Shown: in pieces, positions 2,519 to 52,245 of the stretch
Layout of the letters: the number at the start of each line of letters is the position of its first letter
Numbering within the stretch: the first letter of the stretch is position 1
DNA from: an uncultured Planctomycetia bacterium
Lineage (GTDB): Bacteria > Omnitrophota > Gorgyraeia > 2-02-FULL-51-18 > JAGOUK01
NCBI GenBank assembly: GCA_964430735.1
Contig: CAYSFB010000001.1
Location: 232,674 to 296,673, forward strand
Direction of reading: 5' to 3'
Length of the DNA: 64,000 bases
The notes under the pieces: model-generated
Databases searched by the model: none
Told to the model about the DNA's origin: nothing
What the model saw: only the letters and a program-made list of their open reading frames with translations
Made by a program: the position numbers and the translations under genes

Positions 2519-2522
2519 CGGA

Positions 2523-2903
2523 TTACGAGTTTTCTTTGGCGTGTAACTGAATGAGCTCGAGCAGATAAGGCCTGTCTTCTTCGGACAAGGATTCGAATTC
2601 GGCTCCGATTTCGTAGATTCTTTCGGACCCACCGATCCATGCGCACCAGCGGATGCGCACCGAAGCGGCGATATCGCGGCGGAGCGTGTGGAGACGGACC
2701 GGATAGACCTCACCCGGATCGAGCCGGACGGAAGTTCTGAAGCCAATGCCGCACTCCGAAAGATCCGTGATGTTGAGCACGAGAGGACCTTGAGGCAATC
2801 CCTTGGTATCGATCCGGATCAGGTTGACCGCGGCGACTCTCAGGTGCCGCCTCCGATGGTCCGTACCCGCTTCGATATCCAGGAACCAGTTTTTGATACT
2901 CAT
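2523..2903 (-). CDS. PilZ domain protein (c-di-GMP receptor candidate)
   Basis: RRRHLR (RxxxR) and DLSECGIGF (D/NxSxxG) PilZ motifs. Its ATG overlaps the TGA of the upstream priming GT (ATGA at 2900-2903). Confidence 0.75.
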   Translation of the reverse strand: MSIKNWFLDIEAGTDHRRRHLRVAAVNLIRIDTKGLPQGPLVLNITDLSECGIGFRTSVRLDPGEVYPVRLHTLRRDIAASVRIRWCAWIGGSERIYEIGAEFESLSEEDRPYLLELIQLHAKENS

Positions 2904-4042
2904 ATTTGACCGCCGATCTTATGTGAACCCGACGCGCTCATCTCGCCCGAATGGCGGGCGGAATGATACTCCAGGATGGCGATGATCATCAGCAGCATGC
3001 AGTAGATGGCCACAATGATCGCATTGCCCTTCAGCGATGCGATTTGCGTCGAAAGAACCCCGATGAGTCCGGTCGTGATTCCGACCATGTAAGAGAAAAA
3101 AACCGCGTCGTTTCCGTCCAGACCCATCCGGATCAGCCGGTGCGCGAAGTGGTTGCGGTCCCCGCGCCAGGGCGGCAGCCCGCGGTACAGCCGCACGCAA
3201 ACCACGCTCACAAAATCGTAAATCGGAACGCCGAATATGAAGAGAGGGACAAAGGGCGTGAGCGATACGGGCTGCAGAATCCGGTAGGTCGCCTGCAGCG
3301 AAGCGACCGCCATCATATACCCCAGGAACAGGCTTCCGTTGTCGCCCAGGAACGCCTTGGCCTTGTTAAAATTGTACGGCAAAAATCCGAGGATGGCGCC
3401 GCCGAGAATCACCATCATGATCCCCAGAATCGGCTGGTACATCGCCTGCGAGATCAAAAAAAACGCCCCGCATGCGATAAACACGATCCCGGCGCAATGC
3501 CCGTTGATCGAGTCGATAAAATTAAACGCGTTGAGCAGCAGGACGATCCAGAACACCGTGATGACACGGCCGAACGGACCCAGGTCCAGCATGAACTCCG
3601 CGATAAAGCCGGATTGAACGAGATACGCAGCCACCAGGATTTGGCCCGCGAACTTGACCGACGGCTTCAGGGCAAATCGGTCGTCGATCAACCCCAAAAC
3701 GAGAATCATCACTCCACCCGCAAACATCGGGAGCATCTGGTCTTTGAAGCGCGCGTATTCCGTCAGAGTGGCGGTGCTGAAAAATGACAGAAACGTCCCC
3801 GAATACCCTTCCGAGTTCAGTATCAGCAGACAGGCCCCAAAAACGGCCCAAAACGCCGTAAAGATGGCCAGGCCGCCCAGATAGGGCGTGGGACCGGGAT
3901 GCAGCTTGATCTTGCCGGGGTAATCCAAAAATCCCACCCGGTGGGCCAGCTGGATGCACAGGGCGCTGCACACAAACGACAGGGTCATGGCGAGGCAAAA
4001 AAGCGCGCTCAAGGTTCCCAGAGAGCCATAGGACGACGTCAT
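2900..4042 (-). CDS. WecA/MraY-family polyprenol-phosphate sugar-1-phosphate transferase (glycosyltransferase family 4 priming enzyme)
   Basis: Polytopic membrane protein with the LDYPGKIKLHPGPTPYLGGLAIF motif of WecA/WbpL-type enzymes. Confidence 0.85.
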   Translation of the reverse strand: MTSSYGSLGTLSALFCLAMTLSFVCSALCIQLAHRVGFLDYPGKIKLHPGPTPYLGGLAIFTAFWAVFGACLLILNSEGYSGTFLSFFSTATLTEYARFKDQMLPMFAGGVMILVLGLIDDRFALKPSVKFAGQILVAAYLVQSGFIAEFMLDLGPFGRVITVFWIVLLLNAFNFIDSINGHCAGIVFIACGAFFLISQAMYQPILGIMMVILGGAILGFLPYNFNKAKAFLGDNGSLFLGYMMAVASLQATYRILQPVSLTPFVPLFIFGVPIYDFVSVVCVRLYRGLPPWRGDRNHFAHRLIRMGLDGNDAVFFSYMVGITTGLIGVLSTQIASLKGNAIIVAIYCMLLMIIAILEYHSARHSGEMSASGSHKIGGQI

Positions 4043-6003
4043 GGCTGCCTCCCGTCTTCCGGATGTTCGTCCGAATACTTCTCCGCAACGGCGAGGTATT
4101 CCTTCCAGTATCTTCTCTGAGGCTCATTGCTCATCCGCACGTCCCGGATCTTGATTTTGGATGCGGTGGTAAGCCGCTTGATCGATTCGTACAATTCCCT
4201 GGCCCTCAGATTCCAGCGGTTGCGCCGAAGAAGCGAATCGGTGTTTTTGGCCTCAAAGACGTACATCAGCATGAGGTCGGCCTTGAATTTGATGTTCGGG
4301 CTCGACAGCTCAACAGCCCGTTCCATCAGTTCGAGAGCCTGCTCGATGTTCCGCTGCGCGTAAAGAATCTGGCCCTGCAGATAATAGTACGGACCGTATT
4401 CAGGCATGAGGTTCAACGCCCGGTCCGCGGCCTGCTCCGCCTGCCCCAGCATCTCCCGTCGGGTGACAAGGTCCTTGGAGCGCGTGGCGGTCCGCAACAA
4501 CTCTCCGGCATAGGCGCTCCAACGCTCCGGATTGTGCGCGTCGACCCGGGTCAGGATCTGCAGGGTCTCAAGCTTGCTCGTGTTCAGTATTTTAGCGCGG
4601 TAGATCTGCAGTTGAAATACGGTTTCTACCCCCAAGGTGGCGATCAGCGCCGCGAGGATGCAGGCGATCACCGGAGTTCTCAGCAGGGGTTTTTCGGTGG
4701 CGGCGGGGTACCGACCGGCGGACGGGCGCTCCTCCTGAATATAGGGGTCCCGCGACCGCGCGAGCAGTCCCAGCTGCAGAACAAAATGCATGGCGACAAT
4801 CGGCACCCGAAGCAGCGAATCCGACAGCAGCATGAACCCGAACGGAATCAAAGCCAGAGCCGCCTGCGTCCGGATCATCCTCCGCTGCGAACCCGGCTGA
4901 TCGCCATTCGGCTTGAGCAGAGGCGGCACAATCAAAAAGCCCAGCATGAGCACGATCAAAACGGCTCCGACCACCCCCGCCTCGGTCAGCAGATCCAGAT
5001 AGCTGCTGTGCGCATGCTCGTAATGCCCCCAGGAATTGATCACATCGCCGACCACTGTCTCATAGGCGGGCGAAACAAACCCGAACATTCCCATCCCCCA
5101 CCCGAACAAAGGCTGTTCAACAAAGATTCTAAAATTGGTTTGAGCCAGGGACAAGCGAAGCAGAATGGACTGCTGTATGGCTTCGGCATCAAAAGCACCG
5201 CGCCACTCAGGCCCCAGATACCGGCTGCCCGCGTAAACGGCGGCAATCCCGCCGCCCGCGACCACGAGCATGATGCCTTTGAACTTGCGGAATCCGCCGA
5301 CCAATAGGACCAGGATGTAAAAAACCGTCATGACAATCAGGGCAAAACGGGCTCCGGACCAGATAAGTCCCGCCGTCAGCACGAGAGCCGACAGACCCAG
5401 CAATAAGGAAACGCCGGAGAACTTCCGCCGGAACAGGAGAGCGAAGACGATCGGAAGCGTCAGGGCCGCATAGGCCCCGTAGGCGTTTTCGTAATAAAAC
5501 ACGCCGAAGGATCGGGAAGAGATGGATGCCAGTTCCGTCCCCGCCAGGTTCCAGGTTCCGGAATACCGGTGCGCCAAACCCGACGCGGTCCCGAACAATC
5601 CGATCATCAAGCCGCCGATCAGAAGCCGGAACATCCGCTTGGGCCGCGAAAGAATCGGCAACAACGTCACCCCGAAGGCGCAAAACCCGATCCAGGCCAC
5701 GAAGGCCCTATAAATCGGGGCGTGTCCCGACCGAATGGCCGTGGTCAAAACATAAAAGGCGAAGAGGCACCCGATCAATAATGCGATCAGAATATGGGAG
5801 GGATACTCGTCTTTGGCCTTGCGGGGCGAGAGGAAGCTGATTTGCAGAGCGAGAGCAAGTATCAGGAGGGGCGGCAATAAGGCGTTGGCCCATTGAGGAG
5901 ATCCGCTCGAGGCGTACAGGCCTGCGAACAGGGCCATCCATACCGCCGCTTCATGGAGATTTCGACGCGTGATCGCGTTGTCAAAAGCCGCTGCCGGAGA
6001 CAT
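4039..6003 (-). CDS. O-antigen-ligase-like (Wzy_C) polytopic membrane protein with C-terminal TPR domain
   Basis: About 10-12 TM segments; NSWGHYEHAHSSYLDLLTEAGVVG matches the Wzy_C/O-antigen-ligase motif. C-terminal roughly 200 aa are soluble TPR-like helices. Start overlaps upstream stop by 4 nt. Confidence 0.7.
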   Translation of the reverse strand: MSPAAAFDNAITRRNLHEAAVWMALFAGLYASSGSPQWANALLPPLLILALALQISFLSPRKAKDEYPSHILIALLIGCLFAFYVLTTAIRSGHAPIYRAFVAWIGFCAFGVTLLPILSRPKRMFRLLIGGLMIGLFGTASGLAHRYSGTWNLAGTELASISSRSFGVFYYENAYGAYAALTLPIVFALLFRRKFSGVSLLLGLSALVLTAGLIWSGARFALIVMTVFYILVLLVGGFRKFKGIMLVVAGGGIAAVYAGSRYLGPEWRGAFDAEAIQQSILLRLSLAQTNFRIFVEQPLFGWGMGMFGFVSPAYETVVGDVINSWGHYEHAHSSYLDLLTEAGVVGAVLIVLMLGFLIVPPLLKPNGDQPGSQRRMIRTQAALALIPFGFMLLSDSLLRVPIVAMHFVLQLGLLARSRDPYIQEERPSAGRYPAATEKPLLRTPVIACILAALIATLGVETVFQLQIYRAKILNTSKLETLQILTRVDAHNPERWSAYAGELLRTATRSKDLVTRREMLGQAEQAADRALNLMPEYGPYYYLQGQILYAQRNIEQALELMERAVELSSPNIKFKADLMLMYVFEAKNTDSLLRRNRWNLRARELYESIKRLTTASKIKIRDVRMSNEPQRRYWKEYLAVAEKYSDEHPEDGRQP

Positions 6004-7823
6004 TACCGGTCGGTTTTTGAATTCCGAGAGTAGTAGTGGTACCCCTGATAATAATCCCGGTTCAGAGTCGTCATACGGTTCAAGATCGTTCCGTAGAGAA
6101 TGGTGTTCATCAGCTTCAGTTTTTCAATCGCCCGCATCAGCACTTTGCGCTTCAGCATCCCGCAGCCGACGACAAAGAGGGTTCCGTGCATTTTCTGGGA
6201 AATGATCGCGGCTTCCGGAATGCTGAGGAAAGGAGGCGAATCAAAAATGATCCGCTCGTACTTCGATTCGACCGCTTTGATCAGCTCGTCAAACGTCTTT
6301 GAAGTGAACAATCCTTCGGGATTTTTGGAAGCGGTGCCTGCGGAGATGATGTCGACGTTGGGCTGGCCGATGATGGGGCGGATGATCTGCTGAAGGGTCG
6401 CCGCGCCGGTCAAATAATCGGCCAAGCCCGGGGCCGACGGATCCGCGAGATCCAAGCGTCCGGTGAGCCCGGGTCTGCGGATATCGGCCTCAACCAGAAG
6501 GATCCGCTGCTCCGGCAGCCGCTCCGCCGCTCCTTTGCCGGCACCCAGATTCGCCATCGTAAACGCCAGGAGGGCGCTGATGGATGACTTCCCTTCCCCG
6601 GGTATGCAGCTCGTGATCATGATGAGCTTGTTCCGATCCTTGGGCATCGAAAAAATAAACGCCGTATGCAGCATGGCCATCGAGTCCCGGACGGCCTGAA
6701 CGTTCAGAAGATCTTCAAATTTTTCGGACTTGCAGACCTTCGAGTCGATGACGGGCATATGCCCCAGATACGGGACATTCACCATTCTCGCGAGGTCCTC
6801 CTCGCTGTTCACCGTCACGACCAGCGCGCCCATGAACATGATGAACATAAAAGAAACTATGATCCCCGCGGCGCCGAAGACCAAAACGAGCTTGGTGCGG
6901 TTCGGAGCAAAGGGCTCGTCCGCGGGCTTGGCCCGTTCAAAGATGCTCATGTTGGTGGACTTGAACTCGCTGGCGAGGTTCCGCTTGAGGCCGGCGACCA
7001 CACCGGCGGTCTCGATCTTGGTCTGCTGTTCGTTGTGCTCAATCTGGCGGAGCATTTCGATCACGGCGGGATTTTCGTCCGTGTACCGGGTCTTGAGCTG
7101 CGCGAGTTCGCTGTTCAGCCGCAATTTTTCGCGTTTGAGCTCTTGGATCGTCGGATTGTCCTGTACGCTCGGAAGACTTTCGATAAAATACGGATCGGCC
7201 ATTTTTTCCATCAGAACCGTCGGATCCGATTCCGCGCCGCCGGGAAGCAGCTTCAGCAGCTCCTGATTGCTCCTGAGACTCTGACGAAGACTCTCCTCAA
7301 TAAAGTTCTCGGCGGTCGCATTCGCGAGCTTGGACGCCCACACGGCATCGCCGTCATCCACTTGAATGTAAAAAATATTGGTTTTTTTGTACTGGAAGGA
7401 GCGGGTGTTTGCCTGCAAAAGGCCGGCTGCCTGCTGGTCGGTTGCCACGGCATAGTGGGTCTTGGCGTCCGTATCCTTCGCCGCCTGGAGGAGCACGGGC
7501 ATGCTGGTCGCTATGGCGATCTGCGTGTCAATCAGCCCCCTCACCTCGCCCGACATATTGCCGCTGATCGCTTCTCGATAGGTCGTGGTCTGTGTTTTGG
7601 CGTTGTCGACAAGGATGCTGGCGGAGGACTGATATCGGTCTTTGAGCGCGGAGGCGTAAAAAATTCCGAGGAGAACGAAGGCAAAAACAATAGTGGCGAC
7701 ATACCAGCGGTACCGCATGAACGATTCCGCGAGTTGAATAATCCCGGTTATCTCGCCCGAATCACCTTCATGTGATCCGTGATGCGGGTGATGCTCGGCG
7801 CCCCCGCTGTTCACGTTCAACAC
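6003..7823 (-). CDS. wzc: polysaccharide co-polymerase / BY-kinase (Wzc-like tyrosine autokinase)
   Basis: N-terminal TM followed by a periplasmic coiled-coil, second TM, Walker A CIPGEGKSSISALLA, ILLVEADIRRPG, and a C-terminal Tyr cluster YYQGYHYYSRN. GTG start at 7823; His-rich N-terminus. Confidence 0.85.
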   Translation of the reverse strand: MLNVNSGGAEHHPHHGSHEGDSGEITGIIQLAESFMRYRWYVATIVFAFVLLGIFYASALKDRYQSSASILVDNAKTQTTTYREAISGNMSGEVRGLIDTQIAIATSMPVLLQAAKDTDAKTHYAVATDQQAAGLLQANTRSFQYKKTNIFYIQVDDGDAVWASKLANATAENFIEESLRQSLRSNQELLKLLPGGAESDPTVLMEKMADPYFIESLPSVQDNPTIQELKREKLRLNSELAQLKTRYTDENPAVIEMLRQIEHNEQQTKIETAGVVAGLKRNLASEFKSTNMSIFERAKPADEPFAPNRTKLVLVFGAAGIIVSFMFIMFMGALVVTVNSEEDLARMVNVPYLGHMPVIDSKVCKSEKFEDLLNVQAVRDSMAMLHTAFIFSMPKDRNKLIMITSCIPGEGKSSISALLAFTMANLGAGKGAAERLPEQRILLVEADIRRPGLTGRLDLADPSAPGLADYLTGAATLQQIIRPIIGQPNVDIISAGTASKNPEGLFTSKTFDELIKAVESKYERIIFDSPPFLSIPEAAIISQKMHGTLFVVGCGMLKRKVLMRAIEKLKLMNTILYGTILNRMTTLNRDYYQGYHYYSRNSKTDR

Positions 7824-8474
7824 TTAGAACAGGGACTCCGGAACGTAAATGGAATCACCCCGGGAAATGGCCGGATCTTCCGCGCGTCCTTCGAGCACAT
7901 CGAACAGATTGTACACCTTGGTCTGGCGGGTTCCGGTCGCATACGACACGACTTTAACGGCACGCGGATTGGCGGAAACGCCGAATCCACCAGCCTGCGC
8001 AATCGCCTGAAGGAGGGTTGAACCCTCGGGATTCAGGGCTTGAAGCCCCTGGCTCTTCACCTGGCCGAGCACGATCACCGTATTGGCGTCCGCCGCTTGC
8101 GAGCCGTTGCTATTGATCGCCTCTTCGACATGGTCGATCCGGACCAGCGGATCTTTGATGAACTTTTTAAGACCCTCGGTCAGCGCCACCCTGAAGCTTT
8201 CCATCGACAGTCCGGCCGCCTGGGCTTCTCCGATCATCGGAAAAATGATCTTCCCTGTTTCGTTGACGCGGTACTGGCCGGTCAGATTCTTTTCGTTAAA
8301 GACATCAATGGCCAGCAGATCCCCCGTCGAAATGACTCGGTGGGCGGCTTGCGCGGTGGCGGACACAGGAGCCGTTTCGCCCGCGTCGGCGGCGCAGAGG
8401 GAGGCCGAAAACACCACAAGTCCGGATAGGGCCAGACCGAAAAATCGGCTGAGGCCTTTAGAATTTTTTTTCAT
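7824..8474 (-). CDS. short outer-membrane polysaccharide export (OPX/Wza-family, Poly_export+SLBB) protein
   Basis: Signal peptide MKKNSKGLSRFFGLALSGLVVFSASLCAA, then a Poly_export-like region and an SLBB-like C-terminus. Only 216 aa, so it lacks the Wza C-terminal OM helix. Track start 8534 trimmed to ATG 8474. Confidence 0.75.
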   Translation of the reverse strand: MKKNSKGLSRFFGLALSGLVVFSASLCAADAGETAPVSATAQAAHRVISTGDLLAIDVFNEKNLTGQYRVNETGKIIFPMIGEAQAAGLSMESFRVALTEGLKKFIKDPLVRIDHVEEAINSNGSQAADANTVIVLGQVKSQGLQALNPEGSTLLQAIAQAGGFGVSANPRAVKVVSYATGTRQTKVYNLFDVLEGRAEDPAISRGDSIYVPESLF

Positions 8475-9897
8475 AACTGATCTCGCATATTTGGTTGGTG
8501 CGGTCACTCGTTTTAATGGTGGTATCGACATCAAGGAACATGTAATTCAATTGAAGGCTCGAAGTGGAGTCGATGGCGTAAACAAGAGAGACATTGGTGT
8601 CCCAGCGGACATCCTGCCGCGAAACATTGACCGTGCTGTTCGGATAATCCGGATCCTGAAATATGACGGGATCTGCGTCGTAATCGATCAAACGCACCGA
8701 CTGCCCCGCCCGAAGCGAGATGTGGCGCGTTGCTTGATAGTCGACCGACAGTCCGAACGTGTAGTTAAGAGGGTCGGTGGCTGTTTGCGTGACCTGCGGG
8801 ACATAGTCGGATTGCGAAGTCAGCGTAAAGCGGGTCTTGGCCGAATACAGATAAGTCAGAGCCGCCGCGTAAAGAAAAGCGTCCCGCGACTCAGTCCCGT
8901 CCAGATCCCCCTCGGTGATTTGGTAAATCAAGCGGGTGCGGTACAACAACTTGTCCGTAAACTTGCCGTTAAAGCCGGTGTAGATATTGTCGAAGTCCAC
9001 ATCGACCATGACGCCCTCCGGCGGCCGGCTGAGACGCTTGGTGTAACCGTTGACCCATTCGATTCTGTCCGAAAGATCGTATGCGAGGTTCAAGTCGAGG
9101 TCGTGGGCGCGGGAACTGATGTTGCTCTTGGTGTCGGACAAAAATGAGCGTGCGCTCAGTCCGTAGCTCGCCTTCAGTCGCATTTTGTCCGATACGGTGA
9201 ACAGCGACTCCACGGAATAGGAATGAGTCATGTACTGGGAAGGCTTCTGAGTATCGAGTTCGGTCCGAATGGCGGACATCCCAAAATTGCCGGTGAAGTT
9301 CCACGCGATCCTCCCCCCGCGCGAAAGCGACTGGGTCCAATCATGATCCGCCCGGTCGTTGTGGTCAAAGTTCTGGTGCAGCAGCCGTGTCAGCTCGTAA
9401 TCGCTGCGGTAAGTCCAGCCGTTCCAGCGGCCGGTCGCTTCGATGCCGGGGCTGTAGGAATAAATGATTTCGGGCTCGGCATCAATGCGCTTTTCGAAGA
9501 CGTTGCTCTCGGCCCGCGTCTTCATCCCGATGGTCGGATGCAGATCCAAGGGCACATTCGTCCGTTCCGCGCTCGCCTGCAAGCCAAAAAGCTCTTTGAG
9601 ATTATCCTTGGGAATAACCGGCTGTTGCGAATCGACCGTGGTCAGACCCTTGTCCTGCGGGCTTTTTTTTCCTGCGGTGCCGGCGGGGCTCTCGGTTCGG
9701 ATGCTTTCTTCGATCTGCCGGGAGGTCAGGGCGAGCTCTTCAAGCTGGGTGTCAATATCCTTCCGAAAGTCTTCCAGCACCTTCGAGGATTGTTTGCGGT
9801 TCAGGCTTTCGAGCTCGCTTTCGAACGACGCGTGAGCGGTCCACGAAAAGGCGAACGAACCTGCCAGCAGAAGGAATGCGGTTTTTTTATGCATCAA
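8458..9897 (-). CDS. outer-membrane beta-barrel protein, likely partner of the short OPX protein
   Basis: Signal peptide MMHKKTAFLLLAGSFAFSWTAHA; alternating amphipathic beta-strand pattern throughout; C-terminal ...YEKKF aromatic terminus typical of OM barrels. Encoded immediately upstream of the short OPX gene with a 17-nt overlap. Confidence 0.55.
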   Translation of the reverse strand: MMHKKTAFLLLAGSFAFSWTAHASFESELESLNRKQSSKVLEDFRKDIDTQLEELALTSRQIEESIRTESPAGTAGKKSPQDKGLTTVDSQQPVIPKDNLKELFGLQASAERTNVPLDLHPTIGMKTRAESNVFEKRIDAEPEIIYSYSPGIEATGRWNGWTYRSDYELTRLLHQNFDHNDRADHDWTQSLSRGGRIAWNFTGNFGMSAIRTELDTQKPSQYMTHSYSVESLFTVSDKMRLKASYGLSARSFLSDTKSNISSRAHDLDLNLAYDLSDRIEWVNGYTKRLSRPPEGVMVDVDFDNIYTGFNGKFTDKLLYRTRLIYQITEGDLDGTESRDAFLYAAALTYLYSAKTRFTLTSQSDYVPQVTQTATDPLNYTFGLSVDYQATRHISLRAGQSVRLIDYDADPVIFQDPDYPNSTVNVSRQDVRWDTNVSLVYAIDSTSSLQLNYMFLDVDTTIKTSDRTNQICEISYEKKF

Positions 9898-11295: not shown

Positions 11296-13155
11296 CTAAG
11301 CGAACTTTTGCTCTTGCCAGGCCTGGTAGAACTTCCCCCTTAGAGCGAGCAGGTCGTCCATCGCGCCGGATTCCAGAGCTTTACCGTCTTCCATGTAGAC
11401 GATATGGTCGGCGTTTCGGATGGTCGAGAGCCGATGGGCAACCACAACGGCTGTTTGACCATGCATTAGCTCGTTTAACGCTTCTTGGACCAAGTTCTCT
11501 GTTCCCGAATCCAAAGCGCTGGTGGCTTCATCTAAAAGAAGGATTTGGGACTTTTTTAACATCGCGCGAGCGATCGATACGCGCTGACGTTCTCCTCCAG
11601 ACAGCGTAACGCCCCGCTCGCCAATCACGGTATGGATCCCGTCAGGGAGCTTCTGGACCACATCCAAAAGCCGGGCGCGTCGGATCGCTTCTTCGAGTTC
11701 GCCCGCATCCACGTCGCGCTCGATACCGAAGAGGAGATTGTTTTTGAGGGTGTCCGCAAAAATCACCACATCCTGACTGACCCAGGCAACCCTCCTTCGC
11801 AGCGAGTCGATCGAATATTCCCGGATATCGATCCCGTCAATCAGAATCGCGTCCGGCGCGCAGTCATAGAAGCGCAGTAAAAGATGAATGATGGTTGATT
11901 TGCCGGCCCCACTGGGTCCGACCAGCGCCGTCATTTTTCCGCGCGGCAGCTTGAGATGAAGCCGCTTCAAAATCGGCTGACCGCCGCCGTAGCCGAATGT
12001 AAGATCTTTGACCTCGATCCCCTGCTTCAGAGACTCGAACTCCCGGACTCCGCCCTTCACATACGGTTTTCCCTCATCTTCCAAAACCTCGAGCACTTCG
12101 CGGATCGGGCTGGCAACCGATGCCAAATCGGCCTTGAACTGGTTGAAGACATGGACGGTGTAAATCATGCGTCTGAGAATATAAAAGAAGACGATGTAGG
12201 AAGCCGCCGATGCGGCCTGATGCCGGGCCATCAGCACCGACATGAAGCCGAGCATGATCAGCAAAAAAACCAGCGAAAGAATTTCCTGGGCCGGCGGAAC
12301 GATCAGCCGCTTTTGATCAATGCTGAATTCGGCGGTGAGGAGCCGCTCGCTCAGGCGACGGTATTCGGCCGTCTCGAGCTTTTCGGAACACTGGGATTGG
12401 ATCAGCGGAATCCCTTGAAGGATATTCACCGTTTTTTGGCTGAGAGCGGCGCGCGCCGAGCGGTCGGCTTCCGAGGATGTTTTAATCCGGTTGATGAGCG
12501 ATCGAAGTGAGAGCATGAGGAGCGGGATCATCAGCAACGCCACCAGCGTCAGCTGCCAGGAGATGATGCAGATCCCCGCCGCATAAATCAGAATCAGGAA
12601 CACGGCGCTCAACAGTCCGTTCAGACCAGAAAGCGCCTGCATGATGCGGACCGGATGGGTCATCAGCACTTGAGCCACTTCGCCGGTGCCGGCGCGGTCA
12701 AAATAAAGCTTTCCGAATTTGAGGTACCGATCGATCAGGAGTATCCGGAGATCGTGATTGAGCTTTCTGGCCTGATGCCAAAGAATAATTTGACTGAGGT
12801 AGGTCGCCAGACTCTTCAGAGTCATGGCCGCCACGAGCGCCAGAATCAGCAGTGCAAAAAGAGCGGTATTGGAAGACTGGGCCTCCGCCGGAAGCAGAGC
12901 GGTCACGTGCCGGATCATCGACGATTGATTCACGAATGAATAGTCGTGGGCCAAAAAACCCTGGATCAGCGGCGTCATCACAATCAGGGCCATCGCCTCG
13001 AAGGCGGAAGCGGCCAGCGCAAAGAACACCGGAACCATGATGTGTTCCGGACGCGCTTTGAGCGCCGACAAGAACTTGACTACTTTGATCGAGCCCTCGT
13101 AGAGCGCGTTCTTATTTTTCATGTTTGAAGACAAACTGGGGTAGTTTTTGAACAT
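11296..13155 (-). CDS. fused TMD-NBD ABC exporter (MsbA/PglK-like) within polysaccharide locus
   Basis: Six-TM N-terminal domain; Walker A GPSGAGKST; signature LSGGERQRVSIARAML; Walker B ILLLDEATSALD. An alternative ATG at 13122 (MKNKNALYEG) would reduce overlap with the upstream GT2 gene. Confidence 0.8.
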   Translation of the reverse strand: MFKNYPSLSSNMKNKNALYEGSIKVVKFLSALKARPEHIMVPVFFALAASAFEAMALIVMTPLIQGFLAHDYSFVNQSSMIRHVTALLPAEAQSSNTALFALLILALVAAMTLKSLATYLSQIILWHQARKLNHDLRILLIDRYLKFGKLYFDRAGTGEVAQVLMTHPVRIMQALSGLNGLLSAVFLILIYAAGICIISWQLTLVALLMIPLLMLSLRSLINRIKTSSEADRSARAALSQKTVNILQGIPLIQSQCSEKLETAEYRRLSERLLTAEFSIDQKRLIVPPAQEILSLVFLLIMLGFMSVLMARHQAASAASYIVFFYILRRMIYTVHVFNQFKADLASVASPIREVLEVLEDEGKPYVKGGVREFESLKQGIEVKDLTFGYGGGQPILKRLHLKLPRGKMTALVGPSGAGKSTIIHLLLRFYDCAPDAILIDGIDIREYSIDSLRRRVAWVSQDVVIFADTLKNNLLFGIERDVDAGELEEAIRRARLLDVVQKLPDGIHTVIGERGVTLSGGERQRVSIARAMLKKSQILLLDEATSALDSGTENLVQEALNELMHGQTAVVVAHRLSTIRNADHIVYMEDGKALESGAMDDLLALRGKFYQAWQEQKFA

Positions 13156-13870
13156 TTTTCAAAAAAACCGTCCACATAGGATGAGGAATGCCGGCTGCCC
13201 TGCAAATCCTGAGGTCCTCCAGGGACTTTTGCGCCATGGCGCCGATGTTACGGTTGCTGGCTCCGCCGAGTCTCATGCGCACGCAAAGCCGGTCCAGGTA
13301 ATGCGTCGAAATCCCCTCCCGGTACAAAAGCCGGAGCATCAGCTCGTAATCCGCGGCGATCCGGTACCGGACGTCGTATCCGCCGTAATCGCTGTACAGC
13401 TGGCGCTTCACAAAAAATGCCGGATGCGGAGGCATCCACCCGCGGAGCATCTGCCGCTTGCCGCCAATTCCTGATTTCCAGTACCGCACCGTGCGCTGGA
13501 GATCGGTCCGGCGCACATACGCCACATCACCGTACACACAATCGGCGCCCGTGACCTCAAATGCTTTGACGACGTCGGCAAGGACGGATGGATCGGCGTA
13601 AGCGTCGTCTCCATTCAAGACGGCGATCACGTCGCCGGTCGCGCACCCGATCCCCTTATTGATTCCTTCGTACATCCCGCCGTCTTTTTCCCGGACATAC
13701 CCGGCCAGCCGGCTCCCGTACTCTCGCACCACCTCCGGAGTGTTATCCGTCGAACAGGCGTCAATCACCCAATGCTCGATATCGGGGTGCGTCTGATCGC
13801 GAACGCTCTGAAGGCAGGACGCAAGCGCCGGGCCGCAGTTGAGAGACGCGGTGATGACCGATACCTTCAA
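13112..13870 (-). CDS. glycosyltransferase family 2
   Basis: MKVSVITASLNCGPAL...DACSTDNT...NGDD (DxD-type) GT-A fold motifs. TTG is the only in-frame start after the upstream stop. Confidence 0.8.
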   Translation of the reverse strand: MKVSVITASLNCGPALASCLQSVRDQTHPDIEHWVIDACSTDNTPEVVREYGSRLAGYVREKDGGMYEGINKGIGCATGDVIAVLNGDDAYADPSVLADVVKAFEVTGADCVYGDVAYVRRTDLQRTVRYWKSGIGGKRQMLRGWMPPHPAFFVKRQLYSDYGGYDVRYRIAADYELMLRLLYREGISTHYLDRLCVRMRLGGASNRNIGAMAQKSLEDLRICRAAGIPHPMWTVFLKNVQKLPQFVFKHEK

Positions 13871-13877
13871 CGGGAGA

Positions 13878-14429
13878 TCACGCGCTCATTTTTCTCGGTC
13901 GAACCGCTTGCGCCGGATTGCCCGCATAAATGGTCCAGGCCTCCAGATGGCCGGTAGCCACACTGCCGATGGCCAGCACGGCGCCCTCTCCGACGGTGAC
14001 GCCGGACGCGACGATGGAGCGGGCGCAGATCCAGCACCCCTTCTCCAAACGGATGGGAGATGCGGTCAGGCGGAAGGCCGGGTCGGTCCAATCATGATTG
14101 CCGTTTCCGATATACGCGCCTTGCGAAATGCAAACGTCCGAACCGATCTTCACGGACACGATATTATCAATCCATACGCGCTCGCCGATCCAGGAGTCGT
14201 CGCCGATCTCAAGCTTCCAGGGATATTTGACGTGCACGGACGGCTTGATCACGACTCCCCGCCCGATTTTGGCGCCAAAGCCGGTCAACACCGCCCGTTT
14301 GACTCCGCTCCAGACGCAGAGCGGGTTCCGCAGCGTCAACAGGCTTGTGATTTGCCAGCAGGCGTCGATCAGGATCGAGCGCCCCCGAACACCGGGTTCC
14401 GGTCTAAAATTTTTATTGTTGATCTGCAT
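13878..14429 (-). CDS. hexapeptide-repeat acetyltransferase (WcaF-like)
   Basis: Left-handed beta-helix repeats (IGDDSWIGERVWI, IGSDVCISQGAYIG). Trimmed to ATG 14429 (MQINNKN). Confidence 0.75.
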   Translation of the reverse strand: MQINNKNFRPEPGVRGRSILIDACWQITSLLTLRNPLCVWSGVKRAVLTGFGAKIGRGVVIKPSVHVKYPWKLEIGDDSWIGERVWIDNIVSVKIGSDVCISQGAYIGNGNHDWTDPAFRLTASPIRLEKGCWICARSIVASGVTVGEGAVLAIGSVATGHLEAWTIYAGNPAQAVRPRKMSA

Positions 14430-14514
14430 GTGCCGGCCTCCGCTCCGCATATTTGATCTTCATCCCTGCCGCATCCATCATATCCCACGAAGCTCTGTTT
14501 TGGGACGGGCGCCG

Positions 14515-15696
14515 TCAGGACGCCAACCGCTCCAGCGCTTCGGCGGCGGGATTGCTCCGCTCGTCCCAACTCAAATGTTCGAGAACATAGTCGTGCCCGG
14601 TTCGGCCCATCGCTTCGGCGCGAAGCGGATCGGCGAGTAAACGGTTCACCGCTTCCACAAGCGCCTCCGGGTCCGGCGACGCAATCAGCCCCATCGCGCC
14701 GTCCAGCTGCGGCCAGCCGCATCCGGGAGACGCAACGACCGGAATGCCGTAGCTGAGGGCCTCGGGGATCGTCAACGGCTTATCGTCCGCTGACGGCAAT
14801 ACGAACAAATCCGCCGAGCAGAACATTTCCTCTTTGGCTTTGCCGGCCACCGCGCCGGCAAAAGTCACGCTCCGGTCCAGTCCGAGCCGGGCGACCTCGT
14901 TCCGGATCTGCCGCATGTAATCCTTGTCTTCGACGGGTCCCGCGGCGATCAGCCTGGCATCAGGATTCTTCGCCAAAATCCCCGGCATGGCGCCAATCAG
15001 ATGAACGAGTCCTTTCTTCGGGTGAATCCGCCCCAGATAAAGAATGACGGATTCGCCGGCCTGGCGGCTGTGACGGGCGGCTTCGCGCTTTTCGCGGGCG
15101 GCCTTCACGGCGGCGCGATGTGTGCGCGGCAGATAGACACTCCGGTCGGGGTGCCGGATTCCGCTGCGATCCATGATGCCGAACTCGTCCTCGCGCATGA
15201 CAAAAACGGCACGTGCACGGTCGAGATTGTTTTTTTCGAACAGATTCCAATAAATTTTTTTCCGCAAAGGCTTCTGAGCCAGACTCCAGGGGGTCAGCAT
15301 GTTGTGTGTGAACACAACGTACGGAATACCCCTTCGGGCGCACTCGGCGGCGGCAAACGTGCACGGAAATCTCCACAAGCCGTGGATGCACACCATTTGA
15401 GAGCGCTCCGCCAGCACCCGGAACCGGCTCACAAAATCGGGCGAATACGCCAAAGGCAAGCCTGAAGCACCAGCCAGCCGGACCGGAATATCGACGGTCC
15501 GGCCGCCGGCCGGACGGATGCAAACACGCTCGGTTCCGCCCAAGCCCGGGGCTCCGATCGCCAGAATCGTCACCGCGTGACCGCGGGTTCGCAATGCCGC
15601 GGACAATTCGCCGATCAGCTCGACGGGCCCGCCGACCTGCGGCCCCCAATAGGAGACCACCTGAAGCACGTTCAGACGGCGCGCGTCCGGACTCAT
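14515..15696 (-). CDS. glycosyltransferase family 4 (GT-B)
   Basis: N-terminal domain LNVLQVVSYWGPQVGG and C-terminal EGLG-like motif. Start set at the ATGA overlap (15693-15696) with the upstream gene's stop. Confidence 0.8.
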   Translation of the reverse strand: MSPDARRLNVLQVVSYWGPQVGGPVELIGELSAALRTRGHAVTILAIGAPGLGGTERVCIRPAGGRTVDIPVRLAGASGLPLAYSPDFVSRFRVLAERSQMVCIHGLWRFPCTFAAAECARRGIPYVVFTHNMLTPWSLAQKPLRKKIYWNLFEKNNLDRARAVFVMREDEFGIMDRSGIRHPDRSVYLPRTHRAAVKAAREKREAARHSRQAGESVILYLGRIHPKKGLVHLIGAMPGILAKNPDARLIAAGPVEDKDYMRQIRNEVARLGLDRSVTFAGAVAGKAKEEMFCSADLFVLPSADDKPLTIPEALSYGIPVVASPGCGWPQLDGAMGLIASPDPEALVEAVNRLLADPLRAEAMGRTGHDYVLEHLSWDERSNPAAEALERLAS

Positions 15697-17015
15697 GTCC
15701 GCAAGCCTGCGGCCCATTTTCGGCCGCGCTTGGTCATTCCAAAATAATCACGGCGAACCCACAGCAGCAAAAAACACGGCCAAAACGCCATCCCCGTCCA
15801 CGCGATGACTCCGGGCAGATCGCCTCCGCGCAAGAGCGGTATCAGCACCGCGCAAAAAATGGCCTGCACCATAAGACCCGGGAACGGCCGGATCTCAAGG
15901 CTGTAATTCATAATCGCGGCAAAAAGCGCTCCATAAATCACGGACAGCAGCAAAATACCGATCCATCCGCCCTCCGCATAAAATGTTCCGATCAAAGTCG
16001 GAGAAATTCCCACCGTCCCCTGCCCGTCATCGATCGTCCAGCCCAATTTATTCATATACCCGCCGACGGGTTTGTTGTGCCACCAGGCGCGCGGAATCGG
16101 TCTCAGGAGCACTTCCAGATGCTCGCCTCCTTTGGAGTACGGAAGCATCTTGGGGTAAATTTGCCGCAACATGACGAACCCGTCCAGCATATTGGCGTCT
16201 TCCGCCTGGATGGCCCGCTGTATCGACAAGTCTTTGAGAGCTTGAGATTGGTCGTAAGTTTTAATGGTGCGCACGCTTCCAGAAGCCGAAAAAGCCGTCA
16301 ACGCCGCGACGCCGACCAAGGCATAAACGATGACCTTGATGCGGGGCTGAAGCCCCGCGGTCACGACCATTGCAGACGCGATGATCCATCCCAGTAATTG
16401 GAAACGTCCGTAAGGCTGGAACGTCTGAAAAATAAAGGCGATCACAACCATGAGCCCGAGAGACTGGGTCAGCGGAATCCTGAAATATCCGAACTTCCAC
16501 AGCAAAACGGTCAGCAGCATGATGCCGATCATGACCATGGGAAACAGGGACAGGTATCCGCTGATATCAAACGCCTGCGAAGCGCCTTGAATCACCTGCT
16601 CCATCACCTGGCGGCGCAGCATGATCACCATAGGCAGACATGCCGCCCCGAACAGCAGAACTTGGGGTCCAAGCCAGTTTAAAAAAGCCCGGTCCGGCAC
16701 CGTTCGCAAAATATGCACCGGCTTTCGGCGTGCAAAACAGTACGTGATCAGTAAAATCGTCTGCCCGAGGATGATATAGAGCAGCGCTTCGCGGGCCGCC
16801 TCGGAAGAGATTGGATCAAAACTCCATTCGTCTGACATGACCACCCAACGGCCGATGCCCGACGTCGCCGAAAAATAACGGTAAGCGCCCGAATACAAAA
16901 GGAAGCTGCTGATGATGAGCGGGACGACGTCGTTCATGCTAATCAACCAATACATCCCAAAAACCGTCAGAACGACCTGGATCCCTAGAAGAATGTCAAA
17001 ATCAAGTATGGGCAT
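15693..17015 (-). CDS. wzy: Wzy-like oligosaccharide repeat-unit polymerase (polytopic membrane protein)
   Basis: About 10-11 TM helices plus one large periplasmic loop with RPIPRAWWHNKP; no nucleotide-binding motifs. Trimmed to ATG 17015 (MPILDFDILLG), which overlaps the upstream stop. Confidence 0.6.
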   Translation of the reverse strand: MPILDFDILLGIQVVLTVFGMYWLISMNDVVPLIISSFLLYSGAYRYFSATSGIGRWVVMSDEWSFDPISSEAAREALLYIILGQTILLITYCFARRKPVHILRTVPDRAFLNWLGPQVLLFGAACLPMVIMLRRQVMEQVIQGASQAFDISGYLSLFPMVMIGIMLLTVLLWKFGYFRIPLTQSLGLMVVIAFIFQTFQPYGRFQLLGWIIASAMVVTAGLQPRIKVIVYALVGVAALTAFSASGSVRTIKTYDQSQALKDLSIQRAIQAEDANMLDGFVMLRQIYPKMLPYSKGGEHLEVLLRPIPRAWWHNKPVGGYMNKLGWTIDDGQGTVGISPTLIGTFYAEGGWIGILLLSVIYGALFAAIMNYSLEIRPFPGLMVQAIFCAVLIPLLRGGDLPGVIAWTGMAFWPCFLLLWVRRDYFGMTKRGRKWAAGLRT

Positions 17016-18225
17016 CGCATGCTCCGATAAGTTGACGCCCCAACCGGCTGATTCCGGACCCGGATGGCAAAACCGACCGGTCCGACTGTGCCTTGAGCCG
17101 GGAAGGATTAAGGAGATAGGACCGCAGCGCATCGGCGACGGCCTTCCCGCTGATCTCCCTGAGAACCGTGCCGTTTTCTCCGTCCCTCACAACAGCGCCG
17201 CAACGATCCGAAACGATCAGCGGCAGACGGTGCGCCTGCGCTTCAAGCTGCGTCAGGGCAAACCCGTCGGAGTGCGTCGGCAAAATAAAGACGTCCGCAG
17301 CCCGGTAATGGCCGGCCGCTTCCAACCGGCTCACCCGGCCCCGAAGACGCACGTTGGCGCATCCGGCAAAAAGCCCGTTCACGGCCGCATCCGCCGGACC
17401 CACGACGGAGAATTCAACCGGCTGCCCCTCAAGCATCCGGGCCGCCTCCGCCAACTCGGCCGCACCTTTCCGGAGACCCACCTGGCCCAAAAAAAGAACG
17501 CGCAAAGGGCGGTCGTGCGAAAAAGTCGGAGGATAGGAACGGGGGGCTAAGGATGCGGATCCGGCAGAATCATAAGCCAGCGGGATGGTGACGATTTTAC
17601 GCGCCGGCACTCCGGCCCGCCGCAATCCCTGGGCGGACCAATCGGAATTGACGATGATGATGTCGGCGAGGGCAGTTTCTTCGCGCCAATCGTCCCAATA
17701 GCCGGACGGGACGGGGTCAGGGGCCGGGACAATCCCAGCGTACTTGGCGTACAACTCGCGGACAATCTCTTCCTCATACGGACCTGGATCGATTTGACCC
17801 AGCACCGTCGTCCAGCCCGAGGCCTTGGCAAAACGGAACGGCTTCAGCGCCGTATAGCTGTAAGAAAATAGAATCTGGCGATTTTTTTTTGATTCCGAAA
17901 CGAGCCCGGACAATCGGGCAACACACCGGTCCTGGAACCAGCGGTTGCGGGCCAGAACCTGCGCCCAGCCCCGGACACCTTTGAGCCGCAACCCGCCTTC
18001 GAGCGCAAGCAGACGGCCGGTGAATGCGTGGACAGGGGCCGACGCCAGAGCGGAATCGAACCGTCCCTTTAAGGCGTTTGAATGGGCCCACACGGATTTG
18101 GGCCGAACCCAAGCGTCGGTAAGCAAAGCGCTGAGCCGGGACTCGAGATGCAGCGCGCGGGGAATCGCATAATGCTCCCGCGCGCCCAACTGGCAACAAA
18201 TCCAGGATCGGGACCGGTCAGACAT
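17002..18225 (-). CDS. glycosyltransferase family 4 (GT-B)
   Basis: GT-B C-terminal domain with ...FILPTHSDGFALTQLEAQAHRLPLIVSDRCG. Trimmed to ATG 18225 (MSDRSRSWICC). Confidence 0.75.
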   Translation of the reverse strand: MSDRSRSWICCQLGAREHYAIPRALHLESRLSALLTDAWVRPKSVWAHSNALKGRFDSALASAPVHAFTGRLLALEGGLRLKGVRGWAQVLARNRWFQDRCVARLSGLVSESKKNRQILFSYSYTALKPFRFAKASGWTTVLGQIDPGPYEEEIVRELYAKYAGIVPAPDPVPSGYWDDWREETALADIIIVNSDWSAQGLRRAGVPARKIVTIPLAYDSAGSASLAPRSYPPTFSHDRPLRVLFLGQVGLRKGAAELAEAARMLEGQPVEFSVVGPADAAVNGLFAGCANVRLRGRVSRLEAAGHYRAADVFILPTHSDGFALTQLEAQAHRLPLIVSDRCGAVVRDGENGTVLREISGKAVADALRSYLLNPSRLKAQSDRSVLPSGSGISRLGRQLIGACDAHT

Positions 18226-19342
18226 GGTCCGCGGCGGGTTGGTGCATGTTTCCAAAAATGTTCTGATCGATGGCCTCAAACCAGCCGACAGCCAATTCGC
18301 GCGTACCGGCTTCGTTGAAATGTACGAAGAGGGGGCCCTCCCGGTACCGGGCTTCCGCCAGACGGTCCGTGTCGGGCCCGCAGATGACCGTTCCGTCCAG
18401 GCATAGCTGCCGCTGCGCGGTCCGAACCGATTCAGAAGTCACGCGTCCGTTGTAGGTCGAAACCGCGACCATCCAGGGAATGTCGACGTCCGACCGGTCG
18501 CGGGCAGACTTGATGATTTGAACGAGGCGGTCCCGGTACTCTTCGGTGCTCATGTGCCCGTCCGACTCGCCCTGCGCCCACAACACGGCTCTCGCGCCGT
18601 TGGGACCCGCGGCCTTCATCGCCTTCACGAGGCGATTGAAGTTTGCGCTGCCCGGCTCCCATTTGCGGATACTGCTTCCACCCTCGGCGACATTGATCCA
18701 TCCCACCGGCACACCGAGTTTTTGAACCAACAGATCTCCCGTCAGCGGCCAATGCGATCCGCCTCCTCCGCGAATCTGCGGATCATCCCCCCGCATCCAC
18801 CGCAGACTCCCGTCCGCCTGAACCTGCCCCTTCCGCACGTCATCGCTCGTTGCCTGAAAAAGGGTCGAGCTGCTTCCGGAGGCATTCGATTGACCCGCCA
18901 CCAGAAACACCTCCCCCGCTCCCAACATAAGACTGTTGGCGGACCGAAATCCCTCGCCATGACTGCGGCCGAAGATACGGCTCCATCCGTCTTGAACCTG
19001 GACATTGCCGGCAAAACGCGACATCTTGGGTGCGGCATCCAAAGATACCCAATCCTCCGGCCGGACAGGGTCTTGAGCACGGGCTGGCGGCATGACGCAA
19101 ACTTCCACGGACTTGGCCCGGATTCCGCACCGGCCCAAAAGACTCACAACGGTTCTTTCGCCGTCGGAACGCTGGATCACCTGGCCGTCCTGAATATCCC
19201 AGGAATAAATCTTCGTACCCAGACAGAACCGATCGCGGAGAACTTCGTCGTACTTCAGGATTCCCAGAAAGGCCGCGAATGCGGTGACGGTCAACAACGC
19301 CGGGACAGCCAAACGCGCAGGGGTCCGGTGGGACGTTGGCAT
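18218..19342 (-). CDS. membrane-anchored carbohydrate esterase (DUF303/sialate-O-acetylesterase-like, SGNH-type)
   Basis: N-terminal TM anchor and the FLVAGQSNASG motif (GQSNMxG-like) of DUF303 esterases. Confidence 0.55.
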   Translation of the reverse strand: MPTSHRTPARLAVPALLTVTAFAAFLGILKYDEVLRDRFCLGTKIYSWDIQDGQVIQRSDGERTVVSLLGRCGIRAKSVEVCVMPPARAQDPVRPEDWVSLDAAPKMSRFAGNVQVQDGWSRIFGRSHGEGFRSANSLMLGAGEVFLVAGQSNASGSSSTLFQATSDDVRKGQVQADGSLRWMRGDDPQIRGGGGSHWPLTGDLLVQKLGVPVGWINVAEGGSSIRKWEPGSANFNRLVKAMKAAGPNGARAVLWAQGESDGHMSTEEYRDRLVQIIKSARDRSDVDIPWMVAVSTYNGRVTSESVRTAQRQLCLDGTVICGPDTDRLAEARYREGPLFVHFNEAGTRELAVGWFEAIDQNIFGNMHQPAADHV

Positions 19343-19872
19343 TACTGGAGGCGGTAGGTCAAATTCTTGTTGCGGGTGCCGATGGGGCGGGCGGGATTAC
19401 CGGCGACGATCGTATAGGGGTCCACGTTCTTTGTCACCACGGCGCCGGCGCCGATCACCGCGCCTTCGCCGATGGTCACGCCGGGGAGAATCACGGCGCG
19501 GTAACCGATCCATGCCCGGTCGCCGATGACGACGTCGCCTCCCCGGTCTTCGAATCCGGGTGACTGCGGATCGTGCCCCAATGTCAGTATGGAAGCTTCG
19601 GGCCCGATCGAAACGTCGGACCCGGTGATGATGCGATAAGTGCGTCCGTCAAGCATGCATCCGGAGTTCACGACATTGCGCTCTCCGAGAAACACCTTGC
19701 GTCCGTTCAGAAAATTGCAGCCCCTCAGAACGTCGGTGCCGGCGCCGAGTCGGCCCAGATACATCCCCAAATACACGCGGCGCAAGATACGGCTCGGAAA
19801 TTTGCCGATCCAGCCGGCGTACAGATAGCTGGCCAAAGACCCGAACATCAGTCTGAAGTTCATCGCCGCCAT
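19342..19872 (-). CDS. hexapeptide-repeat O-acetyltransferase (WbbJ/maltose-acetyltransferase-like)
   Basis: [38 protein letters not shown]. The first ATG overlaps a TATAAT box; the 4th codon (ATG 19863) lies 7 nt after it, making it a leaderless candidate. Confidence 0.75.
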
Positions 19873-22756: not shown

Positions 22757-24673
<1,917 letters not shown>

Positions 24674-24713
24674 GACTCCAATCCTCCGTTAATGTCAGCG
24701 GAAAAATTTCCGC

Positions 24714-46154: not shown

Positions 46155-46166
46155 GGCGCGCTTCCG

Positions 46167-46961: not shown

Positions 46962-46968
46962 GGGATTG

Positions 46969-47400: not shown

Positions 47401-47427
47401 GAACGTCCCCTTCTTTATTTGAATCGT

Positions 47428-49818: not shown

Positions 49819-49857
49819 GGTCTCATATCTCCTTGTTAATTGATGGGATCAAAAATG

Positions 49858-52176: not shown

Positions 52177-52245
52177 GGTATGGGTTTGTCCTCGGTGATT
52201 AAGCGAATAATATAGCACAGGACCGGGCTGTCAAGAAGCCCGGAC

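Follow-up and report, generated by a model that had tools for sequence, protein, structure and literature searches.

A putative composite polysaccharide translocon formed by a Class-3 OPX protein and a divergent Wzp-like β-barrel

Introduction

The composite architecture in which a protein for polysaccharide export at the outer membrane (an OPX protein) is coupled to a separate β-barrel was published in 2022, and with 453 OPX/barrel couples reported in 10 phyla (PMC9601211) the pairing is not rare. The closest described systems are those of Myxococcus xanthus, namely WzaB/WzpB of the biosurfactant polysaccharide (BPS) pathway, EpsY/EpsX and ExoA (WzaS)/ExoB (WzpS), in each of which an OPX protein made up of domains D1 and D2 is paired with an 18-stranded barrel (PMC9601211, PMC9603273, PMC12819527). 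EpsX and EpsY have a stabilising effect on one another. VpsN/VpsM of Vibrio cholerae, with the bacterial tyrosine kinase (BY-kinase) VpsO, likewise couples a short OPX protein to a barrel (PMC9601211) and is likened to the present locus by description. A shortened β1-β2 loop, without the tyrosine-ring gate, is the hallmark of these Class-3 (D1D2) OPX proteins, and the C-terminal di-aromatic tail of WzaB, Phe203-Phe204, binds the porin (PMC12819527). A pair of this kind was examined in a 64,000-nucleotide stretch of contig CAYSFB010000001.1 ("the window"), where the gene for a β-barrel protein of 478 or 479 residues is followed, with an overlap, by the gene for a 216-residue OPX protein. The two products very probably form a composite outer membrane polysaccharide translocon of the published Class-3 OPX/Wzp-porin scheme, and the pair is most likely a divergent new example of the already described, widespread "third type" and no new kind of machine.

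Results and Discussion

An OPX protein with the features of Class-3

When compared with Pfam, the OPX protein matched Poly_export (PF02563; 57.9 bits, cutoff 28) and one SLBB/SLBB_2 domain, with nothing else at E ≤ 0.1. The best NCBIfam models were EpsY of M. xanthus, then pepcterm_export and EpsE, all of them short OPX types and all scoring under their equivalog cutoffs. By sequence, the solved structure that matched best overall was chain A of 9n9a (E 3.7e-11), identified as M. xanthus WzaB by a genome scan that gave 100% identity to M. xanthus AM003. The alignment extends from residue 39 of the window protein to its last residue, where ...GDSIYVPESLF stands against ...GDIVFVPESFF; the WzaB di-aromatic tail is thus matched with Leu in place of the first Phe, and the tail ES[LTF]F is kept in 11 of 12 aligned OPX proteins. 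The β1-β2 gating loop aligns with WzaB without gaps, whereas alignment to Escherichia coli Wza requires gaps of 3 and 8 residues, consistent with the truncated tyrosine-ring gating loop of Class-3. Wza itself (Class-1) is homologous to the window protein in D1 and D2 (E ~6e-11), but D3, the D4 helical pore and the tyrosine-ring loop have no counterpart in the window protein. The closest relatives, at 46–53% identity, are proteins of 205–206 residues with the same termini.

An AlphaFold2 (AF2) model built from a 17-sequence alignment (mean pLDDT 80.7) places D1 (residues 48–116) and D2 (132–216) above a pLDDT of 90, joined by an inter-domain linker of low confidence (119–128), and ends in a strand, with no terminal helix. 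The best Foldseek match of this model was again 9n9a (E 3.6e-16). In published definitions of Class-3 or D1D2 OPX proteins (PMC9603273, PMC9601211), size is at most 280 residues and a coupled outer membrane barrel gene lies within five genes; here the protein has 216 residues and the barrel gene adjoins and overlaps its own. By its sequence features and predicted fold, the protein is therefore a Class-3 (D1D2) OPX protein in the structural sense.

The adjoining gene encodes a predicted 18-stranded β-barrel

The barrel open reading frame (ORF) may start with TTG at 9897 (479 residues) or with the next codon, ATG at 9894 (478 residues), the latter version being the product recorded in public assemblies. 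The predicted protein begins with MHKKTAFLLLAGSFAFSWTAHA, continues after the signal-peptide cleavage site as SFESE..., and ends in ...EISYEKKF; the Ala at position −1 of the signal peptide is nearly invariant in the family alignment (A1). Immediately after the cleavage site, 11 of 15 aligned family members carry the motif (S/A)-F-E-R-E-F-E-x-x-N-R, which is absent from WzpB and lies within a helix that spans residues 18–67 in the AF2 model. A variable, acidic linker separates this helix from the barrel. In the model (15 sequences; pLDDT 77.5, pTM 0.73), 18 strands extend over residues 114–477, mostly with pLDDT of 85–95, as in the 18-stranded porins of the Myxococcus systems. Eight periplasmic turns of 2–4 residues and nine extracellular loops connect the strands, and the C-terminal Phe lies at the periplasmic end. 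A crude estimate from strand alternation gave a noisy and uninformative net lumen charge of −4. AlgE was the closest solved structure, where AlgE (or PgaA) is the expected neighbour of a Wzp-type porin; AlgE is also the closest structural homolog of EpsX (PMC9601211). At the sequence level AlgE, the porin of synthase-dependent alginate export, shares only ~8% identity with the window barrel and there is no Alginate_exp match; its partners are AlgK and the synthase, not an OPX protein and a polysaccharide co-polymerase (PCP).

Relatedness to WzpB was evaluated with profiles. From 77 wzaB loci of Myxococcota, 67 WzpB orthologues were collected, in every case from a gene upstream of wzaB and in the same orientation. 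HHalign matched the window-barrel family profile to the WzpB profile at 98.75% probability (E 1.4e-16, 338 columns), pairing residues 116–474 of the window barrel with 43–417 of WzpB, that is, the whole barrel. When either alignment was reversed, the probability fell to 0.4–0.6% (E ~0.1). Since reversal keeps composition and strand periodicity yet loses the match, the signal reflects homology rather than generic barrel periodicity. On profile similarity and predicted fold, the window barrel is remotely homologous to WzpB and has the structure that defines a Wzp-type porin.

The barrel subfamily is rare. Whether started from the single sequence or from a profile, word-index searches recovered essentially the barrel itself only; an exhaustive search of 1.84 billion representatives gave 19 matches at E ≤ 1e-3, of which eight reached E ≤ 1e-30; and a scan of a genome collection with barrel patterns found no relative. 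BBP2_2 is matched by 7 of the 15 aligned relatives (best 2.8e-27). The hidden Markov models (HMMs) in the survey of PMC9601211 were built from EpsX/ExoB/WzpB and from VpsM, and the window barrel subfamily would probably escape surveys so designed; as WzpB-type HMMs miss it, the published system counts are probably underestimates. The locus thus adds a barrel subfamily undetected by HMMs from Myxococcus porins and extends the composite OPX/porin translocon to a poorly sampled diderm lineage. Beyond the barrel subfamily and the OPX peculiarities discussed below, it confirms, at the level of annotation, a mechanism already known.

Gene overlap and conserved gene order

All genes from ~19.9 kb down to 2.5 kb are encoded on the minus strand, with short gaps or overlaps (Table 1). 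The OPX ORF runs from ATG at 8474 (MKKNSKGLSRFF...) to a stop at 7824–7826. A mechanically called ORF from TTG at 8534 would encode 236 residues; the ATG was preferred because the closest relatives begin with MKRS, MTRN or MRRN at the aligned position. The end of the barrel gene and the start of the OPX gene share 17 nt, and a 17-nt overlap is likewise present in two related loci (L005 and L007; Table 2), with the ATG embedded in the codons for Y-x-K-K-F-stop. This arrangement suggests translational coupling of the barrel and the OPX protein. Within the overlap lies an A8 homopolymer (8461-8474, minus strand), where loss of one A would fuse both frames. The run is broken by G in L005 and L007; a programmed slippery or phase-variation site was accordingly rejected for lack of conservation, and the run is probably incidental. 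At the other end of the OPX gene, the PCP ORF (606 residues) opens with GTG at 7823, one base past the OPX stop, and therefore leaves no space for a frameshifted D3/D4.

Table 1. Features of the barrel/OPX pair and of the surrounding polysaccharide cluster in the window, with the evidence for each assignment
Feature	Position	Strand	Evidence
Barrel gene (478/479-residue predicted outer membrane β-barrel, Wzp-like porin)	8458..9897	-	ORF reading
Barrel, predicted type-1 signal peptide (residues 1–23; MHKKTAFLLLAGSFAFSWTAHA, then S)	9826..9894	-	n-region, h-region and AHA cleavage motif, read by eye
Barrel, predicted N-terminal periplasmic amphipathic helix (residues 24–67)	9694..9825	-	AF2, family alignment
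Barrel, flexible low-complexity linker (residues 68–113)	9556..9693	-	pLDDT <50 over 68–110; length and sequence vary in the family
Barrel, predicted 18-stranded β-barrel domain (residues 114–478), C-terminal Phe (...YEKKF)	8461..9555	-	DSSP strands; aligns with WzpB 43–417
Barrel-stop/OPX-start overlap, TTATGAAAAAAAATTCTAA	8458..8474	-	Sequence; 17 nt
OPX gene (216 residues; D1D2, Class-3 by sequence and model)	7824..8474	-	Pfam, NCBIfam, PDB sequence match, AF2, Foldseek
OPX D1 (Poly_export/PES, residues 48–116, short β1-β2 loop)	8127..8333	-	Pfam, WzaB alignment, AF2
OPX D2 (SLBB, residues 132–216, ...VPESLF tail)	7827..8081	-	Pfam, OPX alignment, AF2; tail matches WzaB ...VPESFF
PCP-2a polysaccharide co-polymerase fused to BY-kinase (Wzc-like)	6003..7823	-	TIGR01007, Pfam Wzz, transmembrane segments, PDB match
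Polytopic Wzy_C membrane protein, TPR at the C-terminus (polymerase/ligase-like)	4039..6003	-	Pfam Wzy_C 45.4 bits and TPR
WecA/MraY-family phosphoglycosyl transferase (putative initiating enzyme)	2900..4042	-	Pfam Glycos_transf_4 106 bits
Stand-alone PilZ protein, 126 residues	2523..2903	-	Pfam PilZ 33.3 bits
HepA/MsbA/PglK-like ABC exporter, half-transporter	11296..13155	-	Pfam ABC_membrane and ABC_tran
Sugar-modifying part	13112..19872	-	Glycosyltransferase family 2 (GT2), hexapeptide acyltransferase, GT4-type GT1, repeat-unit-polymerase-like polytopic protein, second GT1, SASA esterase, second hexapeptide transferase

The gene neighbourhoods of ten barrel-family relatives, 19–38% identical to the window barrel, were read. 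Barrel-then-OPX order was found in all 11 other loci examined, comprising these ten and the Myxococcus wzpB-wzaB locus (L015), and in nine of the ten relatives the gene after the barrel encodes a Poly_export/SLBB protein of 205–404 residues (Table 2). The set includes one distant BBP2_2-type barrel that lacks the helix (L091). Where the contig continues, a PCP of ~595 residues follows; in L005, L007, L011 and L093 a Wzy_C protein of ~670 residues comes next, as in the window, and in L005 and L011 a small PilZ protein comes after the Wzy_C gene. Of a further 80 metagenome loci, retrieved by way of OPX relatives, 29 have a detectable superfamily barrel adjoining the OPX gene. Barrel and OPX genes form a conserved module, and their pairing is not coincidental.

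Table 2. Gene downstream of the barrel gene in ten loci of the barrel family
Locus	Length of product	Domains
L005	206 aa	Poly_export + SLBB
L007	205 aa	Poly_export + SLBB
L009	292 aa	Poly_export + SLBB
L010	211 aa (contig ends within gene)	not read
L011	302 aa	Poly_export + SLBB
L089	301 aa	Poly_export + SLBB
L090	314 aa	Poly_export + SLBB
L091	317 aa	Poly_export + SLBB
L092	404 aa	Poly_export + SLBB
L093	303 aa	Poly_export + SLBB

In common with WzaB/WzpB, the window pair has the barrel-then-OPX order, an OPX protein of D1 and D2 only with a short gating loop and an ES(F/L)F tail, an 18-stranded predicted barrel with AlgE as closest solved structure, and a link to a PCP-2a BY-kinase. Identity to the Myxococcus proteins is ~25% for the OPX protein and ~12% for the barrel. 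Unlike WzpB, the window barrel continues past the signal peptide with ~90 additional residues (the helix and linker), and the 17-nt overlap, the ABC (ATP-binding cassette) exporter and the PilZ gene of the cluster further distinguish the window from the Myxococcus locus. Much of this outline had been drawn in an earlier note made from the letters of this DNA alone: an OPX protein of about 216 residues with Poly_export and one SLBB domain and without a C-terminal amphipathic helix, a 479-residue signal-peptide outer membrane barrel ending in ...KKF and encoded immediately upstream with a 17-nt overlap, a resemblance to EpsY/EpsX and WzaB/WzpB, and a link to a Wzc BY-kinase. The ORFs bear out the gene layout, Pfam, the WzaB alignment and AF2 agree with the two protein descriptions, WzaB is the best match of the OPX protein in both sequence and fold and WzpB is recovered by profile comparison for the barrel, and the kinase is identified below.

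Alternative interpretations of the pair

Several observations weigh against assigning the pair to the Class-3 OPX/Wzp scheme. The AF2 models of both proteins were built on shallow alignments (15 and 17 sequences). The sole Pfam match of the barrel, BBP2_2 (PF10082), is sub-threshold (19.1 bits against a cutoff of 23.7), as is its only NCBIfam match, EpsL (TIGR03014; 35.9 against a cutoff of 275, E 4.2e-9); these porins of exopolysaccharide (EPS) clusters are the only curated families that the barrel touches, and both models match a C-terminal stretch only, not the N-terminal helix. A plain WzpB HMM fails to match the window barrel, so that homology is seen only profile to profile, and a single WzpB sequence reaches only 64.6%. 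In addition, the N-terminal region of the OPX protein, SASLC/AAD, has Leu at −1 and no canonical lipobox by regular expression or inspection, and the Arg106-Arg107 PCP-contact motif of WzaB aligns with Lys-Asp (FIKDP against YVRRP).

One alternative is that the barrel is an accessory outer membrane protein, for instance a lectin or anchor resembling Wzi that arranges the polymer at the cell surface, or a porin of general or substrate-specific type, with the polymer leaving elsewhere. This is improbable: the OPX protein has no membrane-spanning segment, the window holds only one OPX gene and one barrel gene of these families, and the profile comparison singles out WzpB, with the barrel covered in full. 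Neither the barrel nor the OPX protein matched Class-1 Wza, Wzi, GfcD/YjbH or Alginate_exp in Pfam at E ≤ 0.1, and the strict barrel-OPX adjacency with its conserved 17-nt overlap argues for a stoichiometric partner. A soluble periplasmic protein, an outcome that the earlier note had considered for the 479-residue product, is excluded by the 18-stranded AF2 model. The pair could instead belong to an exosortase/PEP-CTERM EPS system of the EpsL/EpsE type (Methylobacillus-like), which would change the family label and leave the mechanism the same. Consistent with this, EpsL is the sole NCBIfam match of the barrel, the OPX protein matches EpsY only slightly better than pepcterm_export and EpsE, the PCP matches pepcterm_TyrKin and pepcterm_ChnLen, and some glycosyltransferases weakly match PEP-CTERM-associated models. 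The scores are, however, far under the equivalog cutoffs, as cited above for EpsL, and no exosortase or PEP-CTERM protein was found among the cluster ORFs scanned, which are part of the window ORFs; this labelling is very improbable.

The OPX gene might also be a remnant of a longer Wza, truncated by a frameshift or as a pseudogene, with the adjacency of the barrel incidental, for which the A8 homopolymer at the gene junction could be cited. The run lies at the 5′ and not the 3′ end of the OPX gene, however, and is not conserved; no other OPX-like segment was detected with an OPX HMM in any frame of the window. Together with alignment to WzaB through the final residue, the abutting PCP ORF and relatives of the same length and termini, these findings leave truncation, which the earlier note had also raised, with practically no probability, and it is regarded as refuted. 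The composite Class-3 translocon remains the preferred interpretation.

An OPX protein without a canonical lipobox and a barrel with an N-terminal helix

Lipidation of WzaB is strictly needed for its oligomerisation and function, and its Arg106-Arg107 touches the PCP (PMC12819527). Relative to WzaB, the window protein apparently constitutes a natural Class-3 OPX protein, judged from its sequence, that has neither the lipid anchor nor the Arg-Arg contact to the PCP, each of them essential there. Even the Cys of its SASLC segment is missing in the closest OPX relatives (P0003, P0004 and L007). An OPX protein without a canonical lipobox is not unprecedented, because ~30% of Class-3 OPX proteins have type-1 signal peptides (PMC9603273). 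With the anchor absent, one must ask what keeps OPX rings of this kind at the outer membrane.

One conceivable answer involves the N-terminal helix of the barrel. If the barrel represents a rare Wzp subfamily (about a dozen among 1.84 billion clusters), perhaps missed by surveys, whose tethered helix is a module of the translocon, the helix could capture or nucleate a non-lipidated OPX ring under the porin, the job of the lipid anchor in WzaB, or else serve as a plug or gate in the periplasm. In all ten examined pairs in which the barrel bears the helix, the OPX partner is without a canonical lipobox (one, with LMSC, being ambiguous), and a lipobox is present in the OPX partner of the helix-less L091 barrel and in most WzaB orthologues. 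The ten positive cases form one clade, however, and are not independent. In the 80 metagenome loci gathered through OPX relatives, an HMM of the helix motif had no match; among the 29 of these with a detectable neighbouring barrel, a lipobox was found by regular expression in 10 OPX proteins and by eye in up to 13, leaving ~16–19 without one. Because non-lipidated OPX proteins thus pair with barrels that have no helix, the anchoring idea was downgraded and is considered unlikely; a link between helix and missing lipobox would at best be specific to the window barrel subfamily.

The surrounding polysaccharide cluster and a proposed export route

The PCP has 606 residues from GTG, or 571 from the ATG chosen by the gene caller. 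It passes the TIGR01007 cutoff (109.1 bits, cutoff 108.05), and Pfam Wzz covers an N-terminal piece. Predicted transmembrane segments at 38–62 and 309–341 flank the periplasmic domain and, with a Walker-type kinase domain and a C-terminal tyrosine cluster (DYYQGYHYYS), complete the features of a PCP-2a/BY-kinase. Among solved structures, the kinase domain is closest to VpsO of V. cholerae (E 2.3e-28), followed by Wzc and Etk; VpsO comes from the Vibrio polysaccharide (VPS) system with the VpsN/VpsM composite translocon (PMC9601211). Residues 338–719 of Wzc align with 221–605 of the PCP. The protein is compact, with a periplasmic part of ~245 residues against ~120 residues more in Wzc, and the PCPs of the family loci are likewise of ~591–598 residues. 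Short OPX proteins have been argued, in published models, to need PCPs with extended periplasmic arms. No phosphatase partner of the BY-kinase, of the low-molecular-weight protein tyrosine phosphatase (LMW-PTP) or PHP-type Wzb kind, was seen among the cluster genes.

The WecA-like transferase scored 119 bits with NCBIfam ECA_wecA, which is under the cutoff. In the small PilZ protein the motifs RxxxR (RRRHLR) and DxSxxG (DLSECG) are intact as read from the translation, and the presence of its gene in the cluster, and in the same place in L005 and L011, suggests control of a Wzy-type pathway by cyclic di-GMP (c-di-GMP). Directly 3′ of the PilZ gene lies a metallophosphoesterase gene (Metallophos; called as 228 residues; 1832-2746, minus strand). 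On the other side of the pair, the ABC exporter scored 477 bits with NCBIfam HepA_fam_ABC, under its cutoff of 725, and an ABC gene also adjoins the barrel in L010 (145-1731). Among the cluster ORFs no flippase of the Wzx type was recognised, and for this reason the ABC protein is put forward as the candidate for flipping the lipid-linked unit; in a cluster that otherwise looks Wzy/PCP-dependent, it may represent an ABC-type flippase or a hybrid pathway. The polytopic protein of the sugar-modifying part resembles a repeat-unit polymerase weakly. Between the ABC and barrel genes, two secreted proteins without a family match are encoded on the minus strand (9925-10353, 142 residues; 10350-11225, 291 residues). 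They were dropped as candidate parts of the system, being not conserved in L007 and at most marginally so in L009; in L090, L089 and L009, the position 5′ of the barrel is taken by a FecR-domain or other unannotated protein.

In the proposed route, the WecA-like transferase would start a lipid-linked repeat unit and the GT2 and GT4 enzymes would extend it, judging from their domain families. The HepA/PglK-like ABC protein would probably flip the unit, and the Wzy-type protein would polymerise it under control of the PCP/BY-kinase. The polymer would then leave the PCP cage for a ring of 216-residue OPX protomers in the periplasm, probably an octamer, which with its D1 and D2 domains is predicted to be open, having neither a gating loop nor a membrane-spanning helix. 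The ring would dock via its hydrophobic C-terminal ...ESLF tails on the periplasmic turns or rim of a monomeric 18-stranded barrel, which would serve as the only pore through the outer membrane. This export step is proposed by homology to WzaB/WzpB/WzcB of M. xanthus and to EpsY/EpsX (PMC9601211, PMC12819527). The 17-nt overlap would couple synthesis of the barrel to that of the OPX protein, and the PilZ protein could place the pathway under c-di-GMP control.

Host envelope and other genes of the window

Elsewhere in the window (45312-52218, minus strand), LpxI, LpxD and BamA, the last with five POTRA domains and Omp85, are encoded; DnaB, a GlmU-like protein and PrsA lie beyond them. The presence of BamA, LpxD and LpxI indicates that the host is a diderm with lipopolysaccharide (LPS), able to insert a barrel that ends in Phe. 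DnaK, ClpB, DnaJ and HflX of the window are singletons at 90% identity among ~15 billion proteins, and the host is from a sparsely sampled lineage. Opposite the full-length Hsp70/DnaK gene (22757-24673, minus strand; 911 bits), an ORF on the plus strand (23123-24730) matches Pfam NAD-GH (PF10712) at 576 bits; its reading as a glutamate dehydrogenase gene was rejected, the plus-strand ORF being a long dnaK antisense ORF.

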